Source: Escherichia coli (GTDB taxonomy: Bacteria > Pseudomonadota > Gammaproteobacteria > Enterobacterales > Enterobacteriaceae). From it: 64,000 bases of DNA. The notes under the pieces are model-generated. The model was not told where the DNA came from. It made no database searches and worked only from the letters and a program-made list of their open reading frames with translations. Positions 2,905-16,591 of the stretch are shown one piece after another; position 1 is the first letter of the stretch; every line of letters starts with the position of its first letter. The stretch lies in the NCBI RefSeq assembly GCF_003334385.1, contig NZ_QOWN01000015.1; one strand, written 5' to 3'. Made by a program: the position numbers and the translations under genes.

Positions 2905-3179
2905 AATGACATCCTCATAAATACAACGGGTAGTGCCTGATAAGTGTAGGTCGCCTGCGCGATGCAAATGACGCAAAAAATTGACAGAGATGTGCTTATT
3001 TTTTGAACGATATATTTTTACAAAATAAGACAAATCAATGACATGCATAATGCTGATTTTTATGATGAATTGCCATAAACCATAGCCATGTTAAGGTTTT
3101 GGGGAATGATAAACGCAGCCAGATATTTACCCTGTCGCGTTATGCGGGTATCTTACGCCGCTGCTTAAAGGAGAATGCT

Positions 3180-4106
3180 ATGTCCGCCCAGAAACCGGGG
3201 TTGCATCCGCGCAACCGTCATCACAGCCGCTACGATCTCGCCACGCTTTGTCAGGTCAATCCTGAACTCAGGCAATTCCTCACGCTTACACCCGCCGGGG
3301 AGCAAAGCGTAGACTTTGCCAATCCGCTGGCGGTGAAGGCGCTCAATAAGGCGTTGCTGGCCCATTTTTACGCCGTAGCGAACTGGGATATCCCCGACGG
3401 TTTTCTCTGCCCACCAGTACCGGGCCGGGCGGATTATATTCATCACCTTGCCGATTTACTGGCAGAAGCAAGCGGAACAATTCCAGCGAATGCCAGCATT
3501 CTGGATATCGGCGTTGGTGCGAACTGTATTTATCCGCTGATTGGCGTACATGAATATGGCTGGCGTTTTACCGGTAGTGAAACCAGCAGCCAGGCGTTAA
3601 GCAGTGCGCAGGCGATTATCAGTTCTAATCCGGGGCTTAACCGCGCCATTCGTCTGCGTCGGCAAAAAGAGAGTGGGGCGATTTTTAACGGCATCATCCA
3701 TAAAAACGAGCAATACGACGCGACCTTGTGTAACCCGCCATTCCACGATTCCGCCGCTGCGGCACGGGCAGGTAGTGAGCGTAAACGCCGTAACCTGGGG
3801 CTGAACAAAGACGATGCACTGAACTTTGGCGGCCAGCAACAGGAGTTGTGGTGTGAAGGCGGTGAAGTCACCTTTATCAAAAAGATGATTGAAGAGAGCA
3901 AAGGCTTCGCGAAGCAGGTGATGTGGTTTACATCACTGGTATCTCGTGGTGAAAACTTACCGCCGTTGTATCGTGCCCTGACGGACGTGGGCGCGGTGAA
4001 GGTGGTTAAAAAAGAGATGGCCCAGGGGCAAAAGCAGAGTCGCTTTATTGCCTGGACCTTTATGAACGACGAGCAGCGCCGCCGTTTTGTCAATCGCCAG
4101 CGTTAA
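3180..4106 (+). CDS. rlmF: 23S rRNA m6A1618 methyltransferase RlmF
   Basis: 308-aa product starting [15 protein letters not shown] within ORF 3099..4106; SAM-dependent methyltransferase motifs ([16 protein letters not shown]). Confidence 0.88.
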
Positions 4107-6328
4107 AGCGTTGGTTCCCCCGGCGGTAACGGTTCAGCCGGGGTCGCGCCCGGAGCAGGCAGCACCTGATAAGTCTGCACTGGCGCGCGAACGCCCGCCA
4201 GGTCGAAATGTTTTTTCACCTGGCTGTCGAGGGCAAAGCGTACCGTCCACTGTTTGAGTGGCAGCGTGGTGAACGAAACACGCAGTGTAAACGCGGTATT
4301 GCTTAAGCCGACAATCCCGGCAAAATTCGGTTCACCAATAATCAGCCCGCGAATTTCTTCGTTTTCCATTAATTCCGCTACCGCATCTTTCAGTGCCTGA
4401 TTGGCTTTATCAGCATCTTCATGGCGATCAACATCATAATTTGCCACCACCGAACCAATGCCGCGGACAAAGTTAGCAAAGGTGGTTATCGAAGACCACG
4501 GAATGATGTGATACGCCCCGGTATCCTGTCGTACGCCCACGGAGCGAATCGACATCCGTTCCACTGTGCCGGTCAACGGCCCGATAGTCACCAAATCTCC
4601 AGTGTTCATGCCGTTTTCAAACTGAATAAATACCCCGGTGATAATATCTTTCACCAGCGTTTGCGAACCAAACGAGATAGCCAGACCTAATGCCCCGGCA
4701 CCTGCCAGCAATGGCGCGATATTGACGCCGATTTCCGACAACACAATCATGATGGTGATGGTACTGATAATCACCGCCAGCGCGTTACGAAACAGCGTAA
4801 GCAGGGTACGCGTGCGGGCGCTGGGTAGCGGGCGGCCATGAATATCCGAAGCCAGCCGGTTTTCGATCAAACTGGCGAGCACCGTCCAGCCAACCGCCGA
4901 GAAGAAAAGAATGAGTGCGATACGGATCAGGATATCTACGGTTTTCTGCCCCGCGCCGTTTTGCAGCCAGTTCCAGAAATCGAACAATCCCCATGCGCTC
5001 AACAGCAACATTACCGCCACGCAGACTGTCAGAATACGCGCCGTTTTCAGCGCCGCCGACAGCCAGCCATTCAACCGTTTTTGCAGCTCCGGATAGTTAC
5101 GCTGAGTATGTGGCGAGAGAGTGATGGTTTTCGCCAGCCAGCGGGAAAACATACCGGAAACAAACGCTGCGATACCAATAATCGCCAGGCTGCGCACCGT
5201 TGCACCCATCATAAATTTCAGGCTGTTGCCCGGATCGAACAACGAAAAGAAAAACAGCCCGATAAAATAGGCGCTTGCCAGCCAGTGCCACACCAGCGCA
5301 AAGGCGCGGATAAACAGGCTGAAAAAGGCCAGCGAATGCTCCGCGAAGTTGAGCAAATGCTGGGTAATCTCTTTTTTATTACGAAAGATCAGGTACAACG
5401 CCCAGACGGTCATGCACAGCATAATGATGACGTTCGCCAGCGCACCTATCTGTACATTCACCTGATTAGAGATAATCGGCACGGCCACAATCAGGCCATA
5501 ACCTATCAAACTGCTTAACCAGCTCAGGCGACGACTCCAGTAACGGGCGCTCTCGTCCTGAATCGTGAACGGGCGCAGCTCCGCCACGTTTGGGCAAAAA
5601 ATCAGGCGTAGTACGGCTTTGAAAAATTCAATGAGGGCAAAGGCGTTGAGAAACAAACTTTGTTGGAAAGCGATGGTGCGACTGCCTGCATTCAGGTTGT
5701 CGCTTAATACCTGGCCGACAAATAATGTCAGGGCCAGTAACAGCAGGTCGATAATAAACGCCCCGATAATCATCGCCGGAAGCTGCAACCAGTTGCTGCG
5801 CTCACGATTTTTTTGCCGCGCCCACTGACCCATTTTGCGATACAGCGGCAGTGCGCACAGGCGAATCAGCCAGTAAAAACCAAACACTAATACCGCTAAC
5901 ATTGAAAAATGGGTCAGCGCATTGCTGAAGGTTTGTGGATTAAACGGCTTATGCGGGGAGCCGGTGATATTGCGATAAAGTTGCCCGAAGCGGGCGGAAA
6001 GGGCTTCACCATAATGGCGGCTGACTTCGGTGACCTTTTGCAGCACGGTTTGCTCTTCGACCAGCGTCGGCGGCACTATTTTTGGTACCGGTTCAGCAGG
6101 GGGCGTAGCGGCAACGGTGCGCAACTGGTCGATCAACTCTTTACGCGAGGTGTCATTATCCAGCACATCCGCCAGTGCGCCATAGGCCGCTTTTTTTTGT
6201 TCGATATCCGGTTCCGGGGCCGGTTCAGTCGTTGAGTCCGTTGTCGTTGTGGTTGTAACGCCGGGTATGGATACCGCGTGGGCAGGTGCGCCCAGCAGGC
6301 AGAAGAGGATGAACAGGATCCACCGCAT
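4103..6328 (-). CDS. ybiO: MscS-family mechanosensitive channel YbiO
   Basis: ORF 4103..6355; start chosen at [18 protein letters not shown] (signal-like N-terminus); multiple TM segments and MscS-like C-terminal domain; stop codon overlaps rlmF stop. Confidence 0.85.
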
Positions 6329-6477
6329 GACTCCTCCAGTGAGAAAATAGAGCAAAAGATAAGTATAGATGCTGGAGGAGGGGCGATTTTAAATGAGAGG
6401 AATCTGGTGTGCCTCCCTTTCGGGTGAAAGGGAGGAAGGGATATTAAGCAGGTTGCTGACAACGTGCGGGCTTTTTT

Positions 6478-6577
6478 GCCGGATGCGGCGTGAACGCCTT
6501 ATCCGTCCTACAAGTTCATGCAATTTTAATAAGTTGCCAGATATCCTGTAGGCCTGATAAGCGTAGCGCATCAGGCA
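6478..6577. repeat. REP/BIME cluster (two inverted REP units) between glnQ and ybiO
   Basis: GCCGGATGCGGCGTGAACGCCTTATCCGTCCTACA and TGTAGGCCTGATAAGCGTAGCGCATCAGGCA, canonical E. coli REP sequences in inverted orientation. Confidence 0.8.
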
Positions 6578-6587
6578 ATGTGTCTTA

Positions 6588-7310
6588 TTAAGAGACGTGC
6601 TGCAAAAATTCCTGCAAGCGCTGGCTCGGCGGGTTCTTGATCAACACCTGCGGATTGCCATCTTCCGCAATCCGGCCTTTGTCGATAAAGATCAGCCGCG
6701 AAGCTACTTTCTCGGCAAAACCGATTTCGTGGGTCACGATCACCATCGTCATCCCTTCTTCAGCCAGATCCTGCATAACCTTCAGCACTTCATGGCGCAG
6801 TTCCGGGTCAAGAGCGGAAGTCGGTTCATCAAACAGCATCATTTTCGGCTTCACCGCCAGCGCGCGGGCAATCGCCACACGCTGCTGTTGACCACCAGAA
6901 AGTTCGGAAGGGTAGTGATGTGCACGTTCTGCCAGACCGACTTTCGCCAGCAGCTCACGTGCCAGTTTTTCCGCCTCTTCTTTGTTCGCGCCACGCACGC
7001 GTAGCGGGCCAAACATGACGTTTTCCAGCGCTGTCAGATGCGGGAAGAGGTAAAACTGCTGGAACACCATACCTGCTTCCTGGCGAATCAGGCGCTCGTC
7101 AACTTTCGGATCGTTAACCTTCAGGCCATCGACAATCAGATCGCCGGAGGTGATTTCTTCCAGTTTGTTGATGCAGCGCAGCAGGGTCGATTTACCGGAA
7201 CCGGACGGCCCGATAATCACCACGACTTCGCCCTGGGCAATGTTCAAATCGATATTGTGCAGCACCTGGGTTGGGCCAAAGTGCTTGGAGACGTTTTTAA
7301 ATTCAATCAC
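6588..7310 (-). CDS. glnQ: Glutamine ABC transporter ATP-binding protein GlnQ
   Basis: 240-aa ORF with Walker A (GPSGSGKST), ABC signature (LSGGQQQR) and Walker B ([10 protein letters not shown]). Confidence 0.95.
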
Positions 7311-7966
7311 AGGATTTTCATCCTTCTTTCCAGACGACGCAGAATAAAGCTCAGCACCAGGGTAATAATCAGATAGAACACCGCCACGGCGCTCCAGATC
7401 TCAAGGGCGCGGAAGTTACCGGCAATAATTTCTTGCCCCTGACGGGTCAGTTCCGCCACGCCGATCACAATAAACAGCGAGGTGTCTTTAATGCTGATGA
7501 TCCACTGGTTACCCAGCGGCGGCAGCATACGACGCAGTGCCAGCGGTAAAATGACGTAGCGAATGGTTTCCCAACGTGAAAGACCGAGCGCCAGTCCTGC
7601 TTCACGAAAACCTTTGTGGATAGACAGCACCGCACCACGCGTGATTTCCGCAATATACGCGCCGGAGTTGATCATGATGGTGACCACCGCCGCAGTAAAT
7701 GGGTCGATGCGTAAGTCGTTAAACGCCATCGGCAGGGCGAAATAAATAAACATCACCTGGACGACGATAGGTGTGCCGCGGATCACTTCAATAAAGACCA
7801 GCGCGACGTGGTTGGCTATCCAACCTCCGAAGGTGCGTGCAAAACCTGCCAGCAATCCGATTACCAGACCGCCTGCCAGACCGAGGACCGAAATCCACAG
7901 GGTCATTTTGGCACCTTCAATCAGAAGCGGAATGGCAGGCCAGATGGCACTCCAGTCAAACTGCAT
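7307..7966 (-). CDS. glnP: Glutamine ABC transporter permease GlnP
   Basis: 219-aa polar amino-acid permease; 4-nt overlap with glnQ start. Confidence 0.95.
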
Positions 7967-9254: not shown

Positions 9255-9902
<648 letters not shown>

Positions 9903-11866: not shown

Positions 11867-13444
11867 TTTCGGGTCGAAAATATCGGTTCCGAGATGGTTG
11901 TAATCCACCTTCTGTAACTGGAAGTTGGTGATGTATATCGGCCCGGCTTTCTTCTCAGATATAAACGGGTATTTGATGTTAATTTCCTTCGCTTTAATCC
12001 CCGTCCACTGGGAGAAAAAGCCTAAGAAGTCATTGGCTGAGCGGCGGGCTTTAATCACACGATGCGCTTTATCGTCGCTGGAAATGACCATAAAAGGCAC
12101 CTGGAAATTTTGCTGATATTTATCATCATGGGCAAGGTATTGCACGTCTTTACCGCGCTCTTTAAAGGCCAGACCGTGGTCAGAAAAGTAAACCAGCGAG
12201 AAGCTGCTGCCGCTGTTGCGTAACTGATCGTACAGCTTGCGCAGTAAATCGTCCGTTTGCGTCATGGTATAGAGATAGCACGACGTTTCTTTCGATTGCA
12301 CAAAGGTTTCGTATTTTCCTTGTGTCCTGTCGCAGGCCTGCGGATGTGAGCCCATCAGATGTAGAACAATCAGCTGCGGTTGCGAGTGCTCTTGCGCCAG
12401 CACTTGAGCGGTCATATCCAGTAACGCTTCGTCTTTGGTGTTTTTATCTGCTTCAAAATTACCTTCTTTCAGGAAGTACACTTCATCTGCTCGTTTGGCG
12501 ATGCTGGCGATAGCGGTATCGTATTCGCCGATTTGACCCTGGTTGGAAAACCACCAGGTCTGGAAGCCCGCGCGATTTGCCAGGGTGACAAAGTTATCCT
12601 GAAACTGTGGTTTGCCATCGACAACGCGATTGAGCGTTAAGCCAAGCGATTTCTGCGTGGAGCCACTGGCGGCAATGTAGTCAGCAAATATCAAACCGTT
12701 AACGCTGCTGGCAAACGGGGTATTGTCCCAGTGACCGCCAAAGGCACCGAGGGCATCGCGACGCGCGCTTTCACCGATCACCACCACATAGGTCTGATAC
12801 TTCGGCTTAACGGCAGTGACCGTCCAGGTATCTTTCATTCCGGAAAGTTTTGCCATCCGTTCTTGCTCTTCAATCACCTCGTTATTATTGACGATGACAT
12901 CCTTAGCAAAACGAAATACCGGATAGCCAGTATCTTTCAGTTTAAATACGCCACCCCAGGCCAGGTTTTGCACGGGAGCAACAAAAAATGTCGCCACACT
13001 GAATACCAGACACAGGCTGTCGAAGGTATTCCAGCGCGCTTTTTCATTCTCTTTTTTTCGCCTGATTGCTATTACGCCGAGCGCAAAAATAAATAAGCCG
13101 ACCAGGTAGCTGTACCACGGAAAAATCGTCAGGATTTCGGTCGACTCTTCCATATTGGTGGAGTGCAATGCCAGCAATGTATTGAAATTAGGCGCGCCGT
13201 AGGCCTGAGCAAAAGGGAAATAACAAGCCGCCACCAGCGAACTGACACCGACCAGAACTTTTTGTACGCGAGGCAATGTTCGCCATAGCAAAAGCAAAAT
13301 AGCCGTAAACGCAGCGGTGTAGAGCAAACTGAAGGGGTAACCTAAGCCGAGGTTAATTAATAGCGACTGTAAAAAGTAGAACGCAGTCCACGGGCTAAAT
13401 ACCCGGCTACGGGTAACAAGCGATTCTTTGAGGGTTAAATTCAT
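11861..13444 (-). CDS. opgE: Phosphoethanolamine transferase for osmoregulated periplasmic glucans OpgE (YbiP)
   Basis: 527-aa ORF with N-terminal TM domain and sulfatase/alkaline-phosphatase-like C-terminal domain. Confidence 0.88.
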   Translation of the reverse strand: MNLTLKESLVTRSRVFSPWTAFYFLQSLLINLGLGYPFSLLYTAAFTAILLLLWRTLPRVQKVLVGVSSLVAACYFPFAQAYGAPNFNTLLALHSTNMEESTEILTIFPWYSYLVGLFIFALGVIAIRRKKENEKARWNTFDSLCLVFSVATFFVAPVQNLAWGGVFKLKDTGYPVFRFAKDVIVNNNEVIEEQERMAKLSGMKDTWTVTAVKPKYQTYVVVIGESARRDALGAFGGHWDNTPFASSVNGLIFADYIAASGSTQKSLGLTLNRVVDGKPQFQDNFVTLANRAGFQTWWFSNQGQIGEYDTAIASIAKRADEVYFLKEGNFEADKNTKDEALLDMTAQVLAQEHSQPQLIVLHLMGSHPQACDRTQGKYETFVQSKETSCYLYTMTQTDDLLRKLYDQLRNSGSSFSLVYFSDHGLAFKERGKDVQYLAHDDKYQQNFQVPFMVISSDDKAHRVIKARRSANDFLGFFSQWTGIKAKEINIKYPFISEKKAGPIYITNFQLQKVDYNHLGTDIFDPKP

Positions 13445-13715
13445 ATGCCACTATCGTAACAAACGCCATGTGCTTACCCTGGCGTCAAGGGTCAATACCT
13501 GCAAGAGTGCGTGAAGAGTGGAAAGGGGTCCGCATCCGCGAGCCGCAATATACGCAGGGCTGCAAGAAGATAGAGCGAGCCGCCGTTCAGGTCAACTACT
13601 GACGAACAAATCTTTTGCGAAGGGGATTGCAAATCCGACAAAAAGTGGGGTTTTTCAGACCAAAACGCGTTATGCCTGCATGAAAGCAGGAGTGAAGCGG
13701 CGTACCGCGACGCCG

Positions 13716-13844
13716 CTATTTATCGGAAGGTTTATCTTGCTGCGGTTTGTTGTTGACCATATCGCACAACATAGAGAGCAGCATTAACCGTACTTTAAAG
13801 GGAGAATGACTAAACACGCGCATACACCTCTTGAACTCATTCAT
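13716..13844 (-). CDS. mntS: Small protein MntS (42 aa; lies within the RybA transcript)
   Basis: Not in ORF track (below size cutoff). Minus-strand translation from ATG at 13844 gives MNEFKRCMRVFSHSPFKVRLMLLSMLCDMVNNKPQQDKPSDK*, which I recognise as MntS. Confidence 0.85.
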   Translation of the reverse strand: MNEFKRCMRVFSHSPFKVRLMLLSMLCDMVNNKPQQDKPSDK

Positions 13845-13902
13845 AAGACCTCCTGACTTGCTAATCCCGTCGATCCTTGAGGGATGATTGCATTACATAC
13901 AG

Positions 13903-13920
13903 ATATAGCACAGGCTATAT
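13903..13920. promoter_or_regulatory. Candidate MntR operator upstream of mntS (ATATAGCACAGGCTATAT)
   Basis: Perfect inverted repeat ATAGC-N4-GCTAT, the core of the MntR box; a second partial copy TATATAGCTATTGCTAA follows at about 13921..13937. Confidence 0.55.
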
Positions 13921-14029
13921 TATATAGCTATTGCTAAAACGTTAATTTTTTGTACCTTCGCAACTCTGGTTTACAATGTGCGCACGAAATGAGAACGCTA
14001 TGTATGCGTCACCATAATGAGGAAGCACA

Positions 14030-14497
14030 ATGAGTCGTCGCGCAGGTACGCCAACAGCAAAAAAAGTGACGCAGTTAGTGAACGTGGAAGAGCACGTTGA
14101 AGGGTTCCGCCAGGTCAGAGAGGCGCATCGGCGCGAGCTTATTGATGATTACGTTGAGCTGATTTCTGACTTGATCAGGGAAGTGGGGGAAGCTCGTCAG
14201 GTGGACATGGCTGCTCGTCTGGGAGTTTCGCAACCGACGGTGGCTAAAATGCTTAAGCGGCTGGCAACCATGGGGCTGATTGAAATGATCCCCTGGCGTG
14301 GCGTGTTTTTAACGGCAGAAGGAGAGAAGCTGGCGCAGGAAAGCCGCGAGCGACATCAGATAGTCGAAAATTTCTTGTTGGTGTTGGGCGTCAGTCCGGA
14401 AATCGCCCGTCGCGACGCGGAAGGCATGGAGCACCATGTTAGTGAAGAGACGCTCGACGCTTTTCGTTTGTTTACCCAGAAACACGGTGCCAAATGA
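14030..14497 (+). CDS. mntR: Manganese-responsive transcriptional regulator MntR (DtxR family)
   Basis: 155-aa ORF with HTH and DtxR-like metal-binding region. Confidence 0.95.
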
Positions 14498-15612
14498 GCC
14501 TGCCTTTTTTACGCACGCTGCAAGGCGATCGTTTTTTTCAGTTATTAATTCTTGTTGGTATCGGATTAAGCTTTTTCGTGCCCTTTGCACCGAAATCCTG
14601 GCCTGCTGCTATCGACTGGCACACCATCATCACCTTAAGCGGCCTGATGCTGCTGACCAAAGGTGTGGAGTTAAGCGGTTATTTTGATGTGCTGGGGCGC
14701 AAAATGGTGCGCCGCTTTGCTACGGAGCGTCGGCTGGCGATGTTTATGGTGCTGGCGGCGGCGCTGCTTTCTACCTTTCTGACCAACGATGTCGCGCTGT
14801 TTATTGTTGTTCCGCTGACTATCACGCTAAAAAGACTGTGTGAGATCCCGGTTAATCGGCTGATTATTTTTGAGGCGCTGGCAGTCAACGCTGGTTCGCT
14901 ACTGACGCCAATTGGCAACCCGCAAAATATTCTTATCTGGGGACGTTCTGGTCTTTCGTTTGCCGGATTTATTGCCCAAATGGCACCGCTGGCTGGCGCA
15001 ATGATGCTGACGCTCCTGCTCCTGTGCTGGTGTTGTTTCCCTGGAAAGGCGATGCAATACCATACGGGGGTGCAAACACCGGAGTGGAAACCGCGGCTGG
15101 TGTGGAGTTGTCTGGGGCTGTATATCGTCTTTCTGACGGCGCTGGAGTTCAAACAAGAGCTGTGGGGACTGGTGATTGTGGCGGCAGGCTTTGCGCTGCT
15201 GGCACGTCGCGTGGTGCTCAGTGTGGACTGGACGCTGCTGCTGGTGTTTATGGCGATGTTTATCGACGTCCATTTACTGACCCAGCTTCCAGCGTTGCAA
15301 GGCGTGTTGGGTAACGTGAGTCATCTATCTGAACCCGGGTTATGGTTAACGGCAATCGGTTTATCGCAGGTGATCAGTAACGTGCCGAGTACCATATTGT
15401 TGCTGAACTATGTGCCGCCGTCTTTATTACTGGTATGGGCGGTAAACGTAGGTGGCTTTGGGTTATTACCCGGATCGCTGGCAAATTTGATTGCGCTACG
15501 TATGGCGAACGATCGCCGCATCTGGTGGCGTTTCCATCTCTATTCAATACCGATGCTGTTGTGGGCGGCGTTGGTGGGATATGTTTTGTTAGTTATACTC
15601 CCGGCCAACTAG
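14494..15612 (+). CDS. ybiR: Putative ion transporter YbiR (ArsB/NhaD permease superfamily)
   Basis: 372-aa polytopic membrane protein; start ATG overlaps mntR stop (ATGA). Confidence 0.88.
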
Positions 15613-15622
15613 GGTCTGGCAA

Positions 15623-15656
15623 ATAAAAAAGGCGGATTATGAGTCCGCCTTTTGCT
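15623..15656. terminator. Bidirectional rho-independent terminator between ybiR and ldtB
   Basis: AAATAAAAAAGGCGGATTATGAGTCCGCCTTTTGCTTT: stem AGGCGGA/TCCGCCT with flanking A-run and T-run. Confidence 0.75.
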
Positions 15657-15670
15657 TTAAGTTTTGAAGA

Positions 15671-16591
15671 TTAATTCAGACGAACCGGCATCCCGGAGCG
15701 GTTTTTAATCGCTTCATCAAGAACAACCTGGTCAACATCTGGCTGACCGGTCACTGTCTGCACGCTCTTCGTCAGGGTAATTGGCACAATTTCCTGACCT
15801 TCAAACTGGGCTTCGGTGGTAGACAGCGGGTTATGGACTTCAATATAACGGCTGCCGTCTGGCTCGGTGGTCGCTTTTACCGGCTCATCAATAAACTGTA
15901 CGCGGGTACCGACCGGTACTTTCTCGAACAGGAATTTGATGTCTTCGTTACGCAGACGCACACAACCATGACTTACACGCAGGCCGATACCGAAGTTGGC
16001 GTTGGTGCCATGGATAGCATACAGGCGACCGATATAGAGTGCATACAGCCCCATCGGGTTATCCGGACCTGCCGGAACGACAGCCGGAAGCGGTTCGCCC
16101 GCAGCGCGGTACTCTGCGTGCATTTTGGCGGTCGGCGTCCAGGTCGGGCCTGCTTTTTTACGCTCAACTTTGGTGGTCCAGTTGATAGGCGTATCTTTGC
16201 CTAACTGACCAATGCCGATCGGCAGCACGATAACGGTGTTGGTCCCTTTCGGATAGTAATAAAGACGCATCTCAGCACTGTTAATGACGATGCCTTCATG
16301 AACGGTATCCGGCAGGATCAGCTGCTGCGGAATGTTCAGTACAGTACCGCCTTTCGGCAGGAAGGTATCCACACCCGGGTTCGCTTCCATCATATTGGAA
16401 AGCCCCATCTGGTACTCGGCGGCAAAATACTCCAGCGGCTGAGTGTTACCTTCAGGAATGGTGATCACCTGATTCTGACCAACCAGGCGACTCCCGTCGG
16501 TTGGCAGAGGATAAGTTACCGCAGAGGCGGTACTGCAAAAGCCGACAACAGCGAAGGCCGCTGCGAATAATGTTTTCAATTTCATATTCAT
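15671..16591 (-). CDS. ldtB: L,D-transpeptidase LdtB (YbiS), links Braun lipoprotein to peptidoglycan
   Basis: 306-aa ORF with signal peptide and YkuD domain containing catalytic HGC motif (SHGCVR). Confidence 0.9.

Follow-up and report, generated by a model that had tools for sequence, protein, structure and literature searches.

The window, as we call the whole 64,000-nucleotide stretch of DNA that was analysed, is a piece of an Escherichia coli K-12-type chromosome, and its positions 13600-15700 are 100% identical to MG1655. RefSeq annotation gives the gene order mntS, mntR, ybiR (labelled "anion transporter") and ldtB. Of 5426 complete E. coli genomes, 5423 contain the mntS-mntR-ybiR stretch; two of its 5456 matching places are on plasmids, and some genomes carry two copies. 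The features of the locus are as follows.

13716..13844, minus strand: mntS, small protein gene of 42 aa, divergent from mntR (NCBIfam NF033226, 96 bits with a cut-off of 36; RefSeq)
13905..13937, no strand assigned: two MntR operator boxes in the mntS/mntR intergenic region (pattern search and inverted repeat)
13950..13977, plus strand: candidate mntR-ybiR promoter TTGTAC-16 nt-TACAAT (inferred from the 14-genus alignment A2)
14019..14025, plus strand: mntR Shine-Dalgarno sequence GAGGAAG (invariant in 14 of 14 aligned sequences; -6.3 kcal/mol to the anti-Shine-Dalgarno sequence)
14030..14497, plus strand: coding sequence of the manganese regulator gene mntR, 155 aa, ATG at 14030 and TGA at 14495-14497 (NCBIfam NF008273, 269 bits with a cut-off of 153)
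14494..14497, plus strand: ATGA junction, the mntR stop TGA overlapping the ybiR start ATG (sequence reading)
14494..15612, plus strand: ybiR coding sequence, 372 aa, ATG at 14494-14496 and TAG at 15610-15612 (Pfam CitMHS PF03600)
15627..15653, no strand assigned: bidirectional terminator-like hairpin between ybiR and the convergent ldtB (terminator scan, both strands)

An earlier note on this DNA had claimed that mntR and ybiR overlap as ATGA, and direct reading bears out every coordinate of that claim. Its gene names and the 372-aa length of YbiR agree with the open reading frame list, NF008273 and Pfam CitMHS. The ybiR frame has no start codon before the ATG at 14494, and conservation among orthologues starts directly after it; stop and start overlap on the same strand. 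Overlaps of 4 bases are common in operons generally. Of the 24 co-directional neighbour pairs in the 42 kb annotated around the locus, two (glnQ/glnP and mntR/ybiR) have such an overlap, and two further pairs overlap by 1 and 14 bases. The coordinates of the glnQ/glnP operon pair, converted from locus L001, are 6588-7310 and 7307-7966; on the same conversion, rlmF (3179-4105) and ybiO (4102-6327) converge, with their 3' ends overlapping by 4 bases. The ATGA is kept in 13 of the 14 Enterobacteriaceae genera sampled, despite differing last codons of mntR. In Kluyvera the junction is a TAG followed by a 5-nt spacer, with no overlap, and in two Pantoea species a spacer of about 24 nt separates mntR from ybiR. 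The mntR-ybiR operon is already tabulated in a published promoter table (PMC3946193). The overlap is real, and it is an ordinary, previously known operon junction.

No terminator was found between mntR and ybiR in our scan; the hairpin at 15627-15653 is the first intergenic one and the sole terminator-like plus-strand site outside coding sequence after mntR. A consensus scan, which is weak evidence, gave no promoter-like site on the plus strand within 14030-14494. By these scans and the operon listing, the genes have neither terminator nor promoter between them, as is characteristic of a single transcript. In Salmonella Weltevreden growing on sprouts, mntR was up 3.9-fold and ybiR 2.6-fold (PMC4265072), and such joint induction is what one transcript would be expected to give. 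A single mntR-ybiR transcript would start in the mntS-mntR intergenic region and end at the hairpin after ybiR.

The two genes differ in their translation signals. The Shine-Dalgarno sequence of ybiR is weak in E. coli, at -3.0 kcal/mol, which 39% of random positions in the window also reach; among orthologues it varies from -1.9 to -6.6 kcal/mol, whereas that of mntR stays between -5.9 and -6.3 kcal/mol throughout. A strong independent ribosome-binding site for ybiR in E. coli was rejected for this reason, its value being no better than random, and so was a structure-gated start, since the junction RNA folds no better than shuffled sequences do (z = 0.14). Rfam has no RNA family across 13400-15800. 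The pair resembles known ATGA termination-reinitiation pairs in lying on the same strand, overlapping by 4 bases, having a weak downstream ribosome-binding site and lacking a terminator between the genes. It is plausible, from the sequence, that ybiR translation is coupled to that of mntR, since the ATGA is conserved, the Shine-Dalgarno sequence of ybiR is weak and variable while that of mntR is strong and invariant, and terminator- and promoter-like sites are absent between the genes. Ribosomes finishing mntR at the TGA of the ATGA would most likely re-initiate at the overlapping ATG, and YbiR, with its weak ribosome-binding site, would probably be made at low output tied to MntR synthesis.

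Upstream of the operon, MntR boxes were searched with the consensus of the mntH operator. Box 1 (ATAGCACAGGCTAT, 13905-13918) matches this pattern perfectly and box 2 (ATAGCTATTGCTAA, 13924-13937) with one mismatch. All 16 loci in which mntR and ybiR are linked have box 1, about -120 to -132 from the mntR ATG, and 14 of them also have box 2, about 19 nt downstream of box 1. The TACAAT and a TTTG..C block are nearly invariant across the 14 genera of alignment A2, and we regard TTGTAC-16 nt-TACAAT (13950-13977) as the likelier candidate for the mntR promoter than ATTACA-18-TATATT. The latter was predicted by our promoter scan at 13892-13921, where it overlaps box 1, and is also given in the published promoter table (PMC3946193). 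The boxes therefore stand either 12 bp upstream of the candidate -35 element (TTGTAC) or inside the alternative promoter. If ATTACA-18-TATATT were the true promoter, mntR would be subject to manganese autorepression, the operon would be manganese-responsive and ybiR would be a member of the MntR regulon. In common with that regulon (mntH, mntS, mntP, dps), ybiR shares the intergenic region that holds both MntR boxes of mntS; unlinked ybiR orthologues differ from it in lacking an MntR box. Elsewhere in the window, a perfect MntR box (ATAGCACCGGCTAT, 9808-9821) lies about 50-63 bp upstream of the start codon of dps (about 9255-9758, minus strand), which fits the published placing of dps in the MntR regulon.

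The earlier note had described YbiR as an ArsB/NhaD-type permease with no assigned substrate, and this description, which amounts to membership in the ion-transporter superfamily, agrees with the Pfam match, Foldseek and hhalign alike. YbiR matches Pfam CitMHS (PF03600) over residues 27-304 with an E-value of 7.5e-43, and no NCBIfam family was matched above its cut-off; all its Pfam and NCBIfam matches are to CitMHS, Na_sulph_symp, DASS, MamN and NhaB. At E <= 0.001 the family has 4621 representatives, and at E <= 1e-30 it has 271 clusters, drawn from bacteria and archaea. Full-length members have 350-390 aa and are 30-54% identical, and 60 diverse ones were aligned (alignment A1). An AF2 model of YbiR built on this alignment has a pLDDT of 95.8 and a pTM of 0.93, and Foldseek matched it to yeast Pho90, VcINDY, ArsB and NaS1 with probability 1.0 (TM-score 0.73 for Pho90 and 0.61 for ArsB). 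Its top matches among solved structures are without exception elevator-type carriers of the ion-transporter superfamily. The model shows an elevator fold built from an inverted repeat, with two helical hairpins and two broken helices, and the repeat was detected within Pho90. YbiR is thus confidently modelled as an elevator-type secondary transporter of the ion-transporter superfamily.

Searching the PDB with the family profile found Pho90 (E 7.8e-13) as the only solved protein, and phmmer with YbiR itself matched no PDB sequence. Neighbours in the AlphaFold database carry only inconsistent automatic names (citrate, anion, cation, NhaD, DUF1646). Compared with the E. coli model, these AlphaFold database members fall into one group with a TM-score of about 0.9 and an rmsd of about 1.5 and another with about 0.75 and about 4.5, a split that predictions of two different elevator states would account for. 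The family has no characterised member, and YbiR is an E. coli transporter that lacks an assigned substrate.

Several known carrier families share features with YbiR without including it. The fold is common to YbiR, the DASS/SLC13 proteins (VcINDY, NaS1) and Pho90, with TM-scores of 0.56-0.75, and the loop motif SPQN of Pho90 corresponds to NPQN in YbiR. YbiR scores 40.3 bits with the DASS model TIGR00785, whose cut-off is 198.6, and the two SNT motifs of DASS proteins are replaced by TND and SNVP at its hairpin tips; in this YbiR resembles ArsB, whose tips are AND and NNMP. The aspartate at the tip of hairpin 1 in YbiR is not found in sodium-dependent DASS proteins (PMC13381914). By Pfam and NCBIfam, YbiR has no homology to known manganese transporters (NRAMP/MntH, MntP, SitABCD, CDF, TerC/Alx). 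ArsB (PDB 10tp), the arsenite/antimonite:H+ antiporter, shares with it the elevator fold with two hairpin-loop motifs. However, identity to ArsB is about 19%, YbiR is about 55 residues shorter, it has no Pfam or NCBIfam ArsB match, and its neighbours are mntR and ldtB rather than an ars operon.

In ArsB, As(OH)3 is held by Asn111 in hairpin 1, Asn337 in hairpin 2 and Ser380, with Asp112 and Asn158 in a marginal role (PMC13381914). The L. ferriphilum ArsB sequence, taken from the PDB alignment, was aligned to the YbiR profile by hhalign with a probability of 96.9% and an E-value of 1.4e-10. This alignment pairs N98/D99 of YbiR with N111/D112 of ArsB, N142 with N158, N296/P298 with N337/P339, and S328 with S380. 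All six YbiR residues (N98, D99, N142, N296, P298 and S328) are invariant among the 60 diverse members of alignment A1, and the metalloid contacts of ArsB, namely an asparagine in each hairpin and a serine in loop 2, have their counterparts in N98, N296 and S328. Proton coupling in ArsB has been proposed to involve Asp112, Asp148 and Asp370, which are absent in sodium-dependent DASS proteins (PMC13381914, 2026). From this set together with K374, YbiR keeps only D99 (equivalent to D112): N132 stands in place of D148, and YbiR lacks the stretch that contains D370 and K374.

Because the invariant pocket corresponds to the As(OH)3-binding residues of ArsB and retains one of the three proposed proton-coupling aspartates, YbiR most likely works as an elevator carrier that exchanges protons for a small polar solute, uncharged or anionic, and probably does not carry Mn2+ itself. 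We place YbiR outside the ArsB family proper since it lacks the profile match, two of the three aspartates and the ars context, and since ars-deleted E. coli strains, which keep ybiR, are arsenite-sensitive. This sensitivity also makes arsenite efflux an unlikely function of YbiR. An ars-deleted E. coli strain was employed in the structural study of ArsB (PMC13381914).

The synteny of ybiR with mntR was followed in one genome per species of the GTDB collection, where 80 loci out of more than 600 matches were taken as a sample and not as a census. With E. coli MntR as the tblastn query, mntR was found immediately before ybiR in each of the 14 Enterobacteriaceae loci and in both Pantoea loci, and no MntR/DtxR relative was found within 6 kb (tblastn E <= 1e-3) in any of the remaining 64. 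These unlinked loci belong to Rahnella (2), Yersinia (2), Serratia and Hafnia, and 58 are more distant, among them Burkholderiales, Halomonas, Rheinheimera, Xanthomonadales-type genera, one alphaproteobacterium, several candidate phyla and archaea. The earlier note had proposed conserved mntR-ybiR synteny across genomes as a check, with a lack of it in other genera counting against its inference. Such a lack is not what we see, since at least 14 genera of Enterobacteriaceae, as well as Pantoea, have the arrangement, but the answer is mixed, as Yersiniaceae, Hafnia and the 58 distant loci are without it. Within 400 nt upstream of the YbiR gene, no MntR box occurs in the 64 unlinked loci, with 0.56 expected by chance; this search assumes that the operator consensus is valid at least in Yersiniaceae and Hafnia.

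The linked genomes, Pantoea included, share a larger block, dps-rhtA-ompX...mntS-mntR-ybiR, so much of the synteny is plain common descent. Being limited to one related group, it does not independently support a part for YbiR in manganese homeostasis. The simplest reading is that ybiR was joined to mntR in one event in the Enterobacteriaceae/Erwiniaceae lineage, and such a single joining would by itself say little about function. MntS has been proposed to derive from the signal peptide of a SitA whose operon was paired with mntR (bioRxiv 10.1101/2023.06.02.543501), and this shows rearrangement of the locus in this lineage. In Pantoea stewartii (L017), an ORF divergent from mntR (5015-5215, minus strand, 66 aa as called) holds an MntS-like core, SPFTLRLML, where E. 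coli has SPFKVRLML; it was missed by tblastn at E <= 1e-3.

Outside Enterobacteriaceae, neighbours were read with crude ORF calling, which failed in several high-GC loci. In Burkholderiaceae (Paraburkholderia, Caballeronia and Burkholderia; for example L066, 4219-7860) the YbiR homologue lies between parA-parB and atpI, a conserved position that seems unrelated to transport function. The neighbours are a MarA-like regulator in Hafnia, a LacI-type regulator and the phosphatase Agp in Yersinia, and HipA in Rheinheimera; in a methanogen (L052), a SaoE or Cu-Zn-efflux-like permease, a distant match below cut-off, stands upstream of the homologue. We rejected conserved neighbours as a clue to function outside Enterobacteriaceae, as the neighbour clusters are taxon-restricted and mutually unrelated. 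In one MAG of candidate division WOR-3 (L030), the magnesium transporter gene mgtE (4562-5959; TIGR00400, 403 bits) precedes the YbiR homologue (5980-7089) by 20 nt on the same strand. Among the neighbours read outside Enterobacterales, no other is clearly related to metal ions.

As the joint best explanation, at a probability of roughly 0.7, we favour an annotated two-gene operon in which ybiR would be translated by reinitiation at the ATGA, YbiR would be a proton-exchanging elevator carrier, and the link to mntR would be restricted to one lineage. Alternatively, the overlap could reflect compact gene packing only, with ybiR translated independently of mntR, whether by means of its own weak ribosome-binding site or on an internal transcript. 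The frequency of 4-base overlaps in this region agrees with such packing, as does the fact that the Kluyvera and Pantoea orthologues work without an overlap. Shine-Dalgarno-like sequences of -5 to -6.6 kcal/mol precede ybiR in some orthologues, and a fair one, at -6.5 kcal/mol, could permit independent initiation there; the junction RNA, moreover, has no unusual structure that upstream ribosomes would need to open. However, the Shine-Dalgarno sequence of ybiR in E. coli is not stronger than random sequence, the ATGA is invariant across 13 genera while the adjacent codons vary, and mntR has no promoter-like plus-strand site inside it, so that we consider translation independent of mntR quite improbable.

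The other alternative concerns the cargo, and it takes up the suggestion of the earlier note that YbiR may move an ion relevant to manganese homeostasis. YbiR would then be a working part of this homeostasis. Its cargo would be Mn2+, a metal complex, or else a counter-ion or ligand (phosphate, for example), and its level would follow MntR and, by way of the shared operator, manganese. A conserved overlap between a regulator and a transporter often reflects functional pairing, which counts against reading the link as positional only, and here two families retain the operon and its ATGA junction. The MntR boxes lie just upstream of one candidate promoter or inside the other, the sequence profile points to the phosphate carrier Pho90 as the nearest solved protein, and mgtE adjoins a YbiR homologue in the one WOR-3 genome. 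The members that gave Pfam CitMHS its name carry metal-citrate complexes, which can be counted on the same side. Were the operon link functional, YbiR would be an added component of a well-studied metal circuit. Nevertheless, 64 of the 80 loci have no link to mntR or another DtxR-family gene, those of Yersiniaceae and Hafnia included, their genes show no MntR box, and no neighbour recurs across lineages. YbiR has no likeness to manganese carriers, and its ArsB-like pocket holds a single acidic residue. The manganese papers that we found do not mention ybiR. A microarray of an mntP mutant under manganese stress gave mntS at 0.08-fold, and the pathway-grouped tables of that study name mntS but not mntR or ybiR, a weak point, as these tables are incomplete lists (PMC5605510). 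The suggestion thus finds no support in our results, and a manganese role is in our view unlikely. The comparison of loci argues instead that the mntR-ybiR link would be positional and confined to one lineage. A further picture, in which YbiR would be a proton-coupled ArsB-like elevator carrier of a small oxyanion or hydroxylated solute (e.g., phosphate or a similar manganese ligand) that Enterobacteriaceae took into the mntR transcript as an unrecognised branch of manganese homeostasis, the operon being manganese-responsive through the shared MntR operator, appears very unlikely.

To the known operon our analysis adds the limit of the synteny, which goes no further than Enterobacteriaceae and Erwiniaceae. 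It also adds a binding pocket in YbiR that resembles the one in ArsB, is probably proton-coupled and suggests concrete substrates and point mutants. This pocket is a more useful lead than the linkage to mntR. The searchable literature yielded no metal phenotype or functional study of ybiR. Besides the operon listing and the Salmonella induction table, ybiR came up in one silver-nanoparticle mutation list. The only phenotype that we found concerns the cationic dye diS-C3(5): its uptake is lowered in the Keio ybiR knockout, one of the most strongly affected strains, and this effect is unspecific (PMC6704527).
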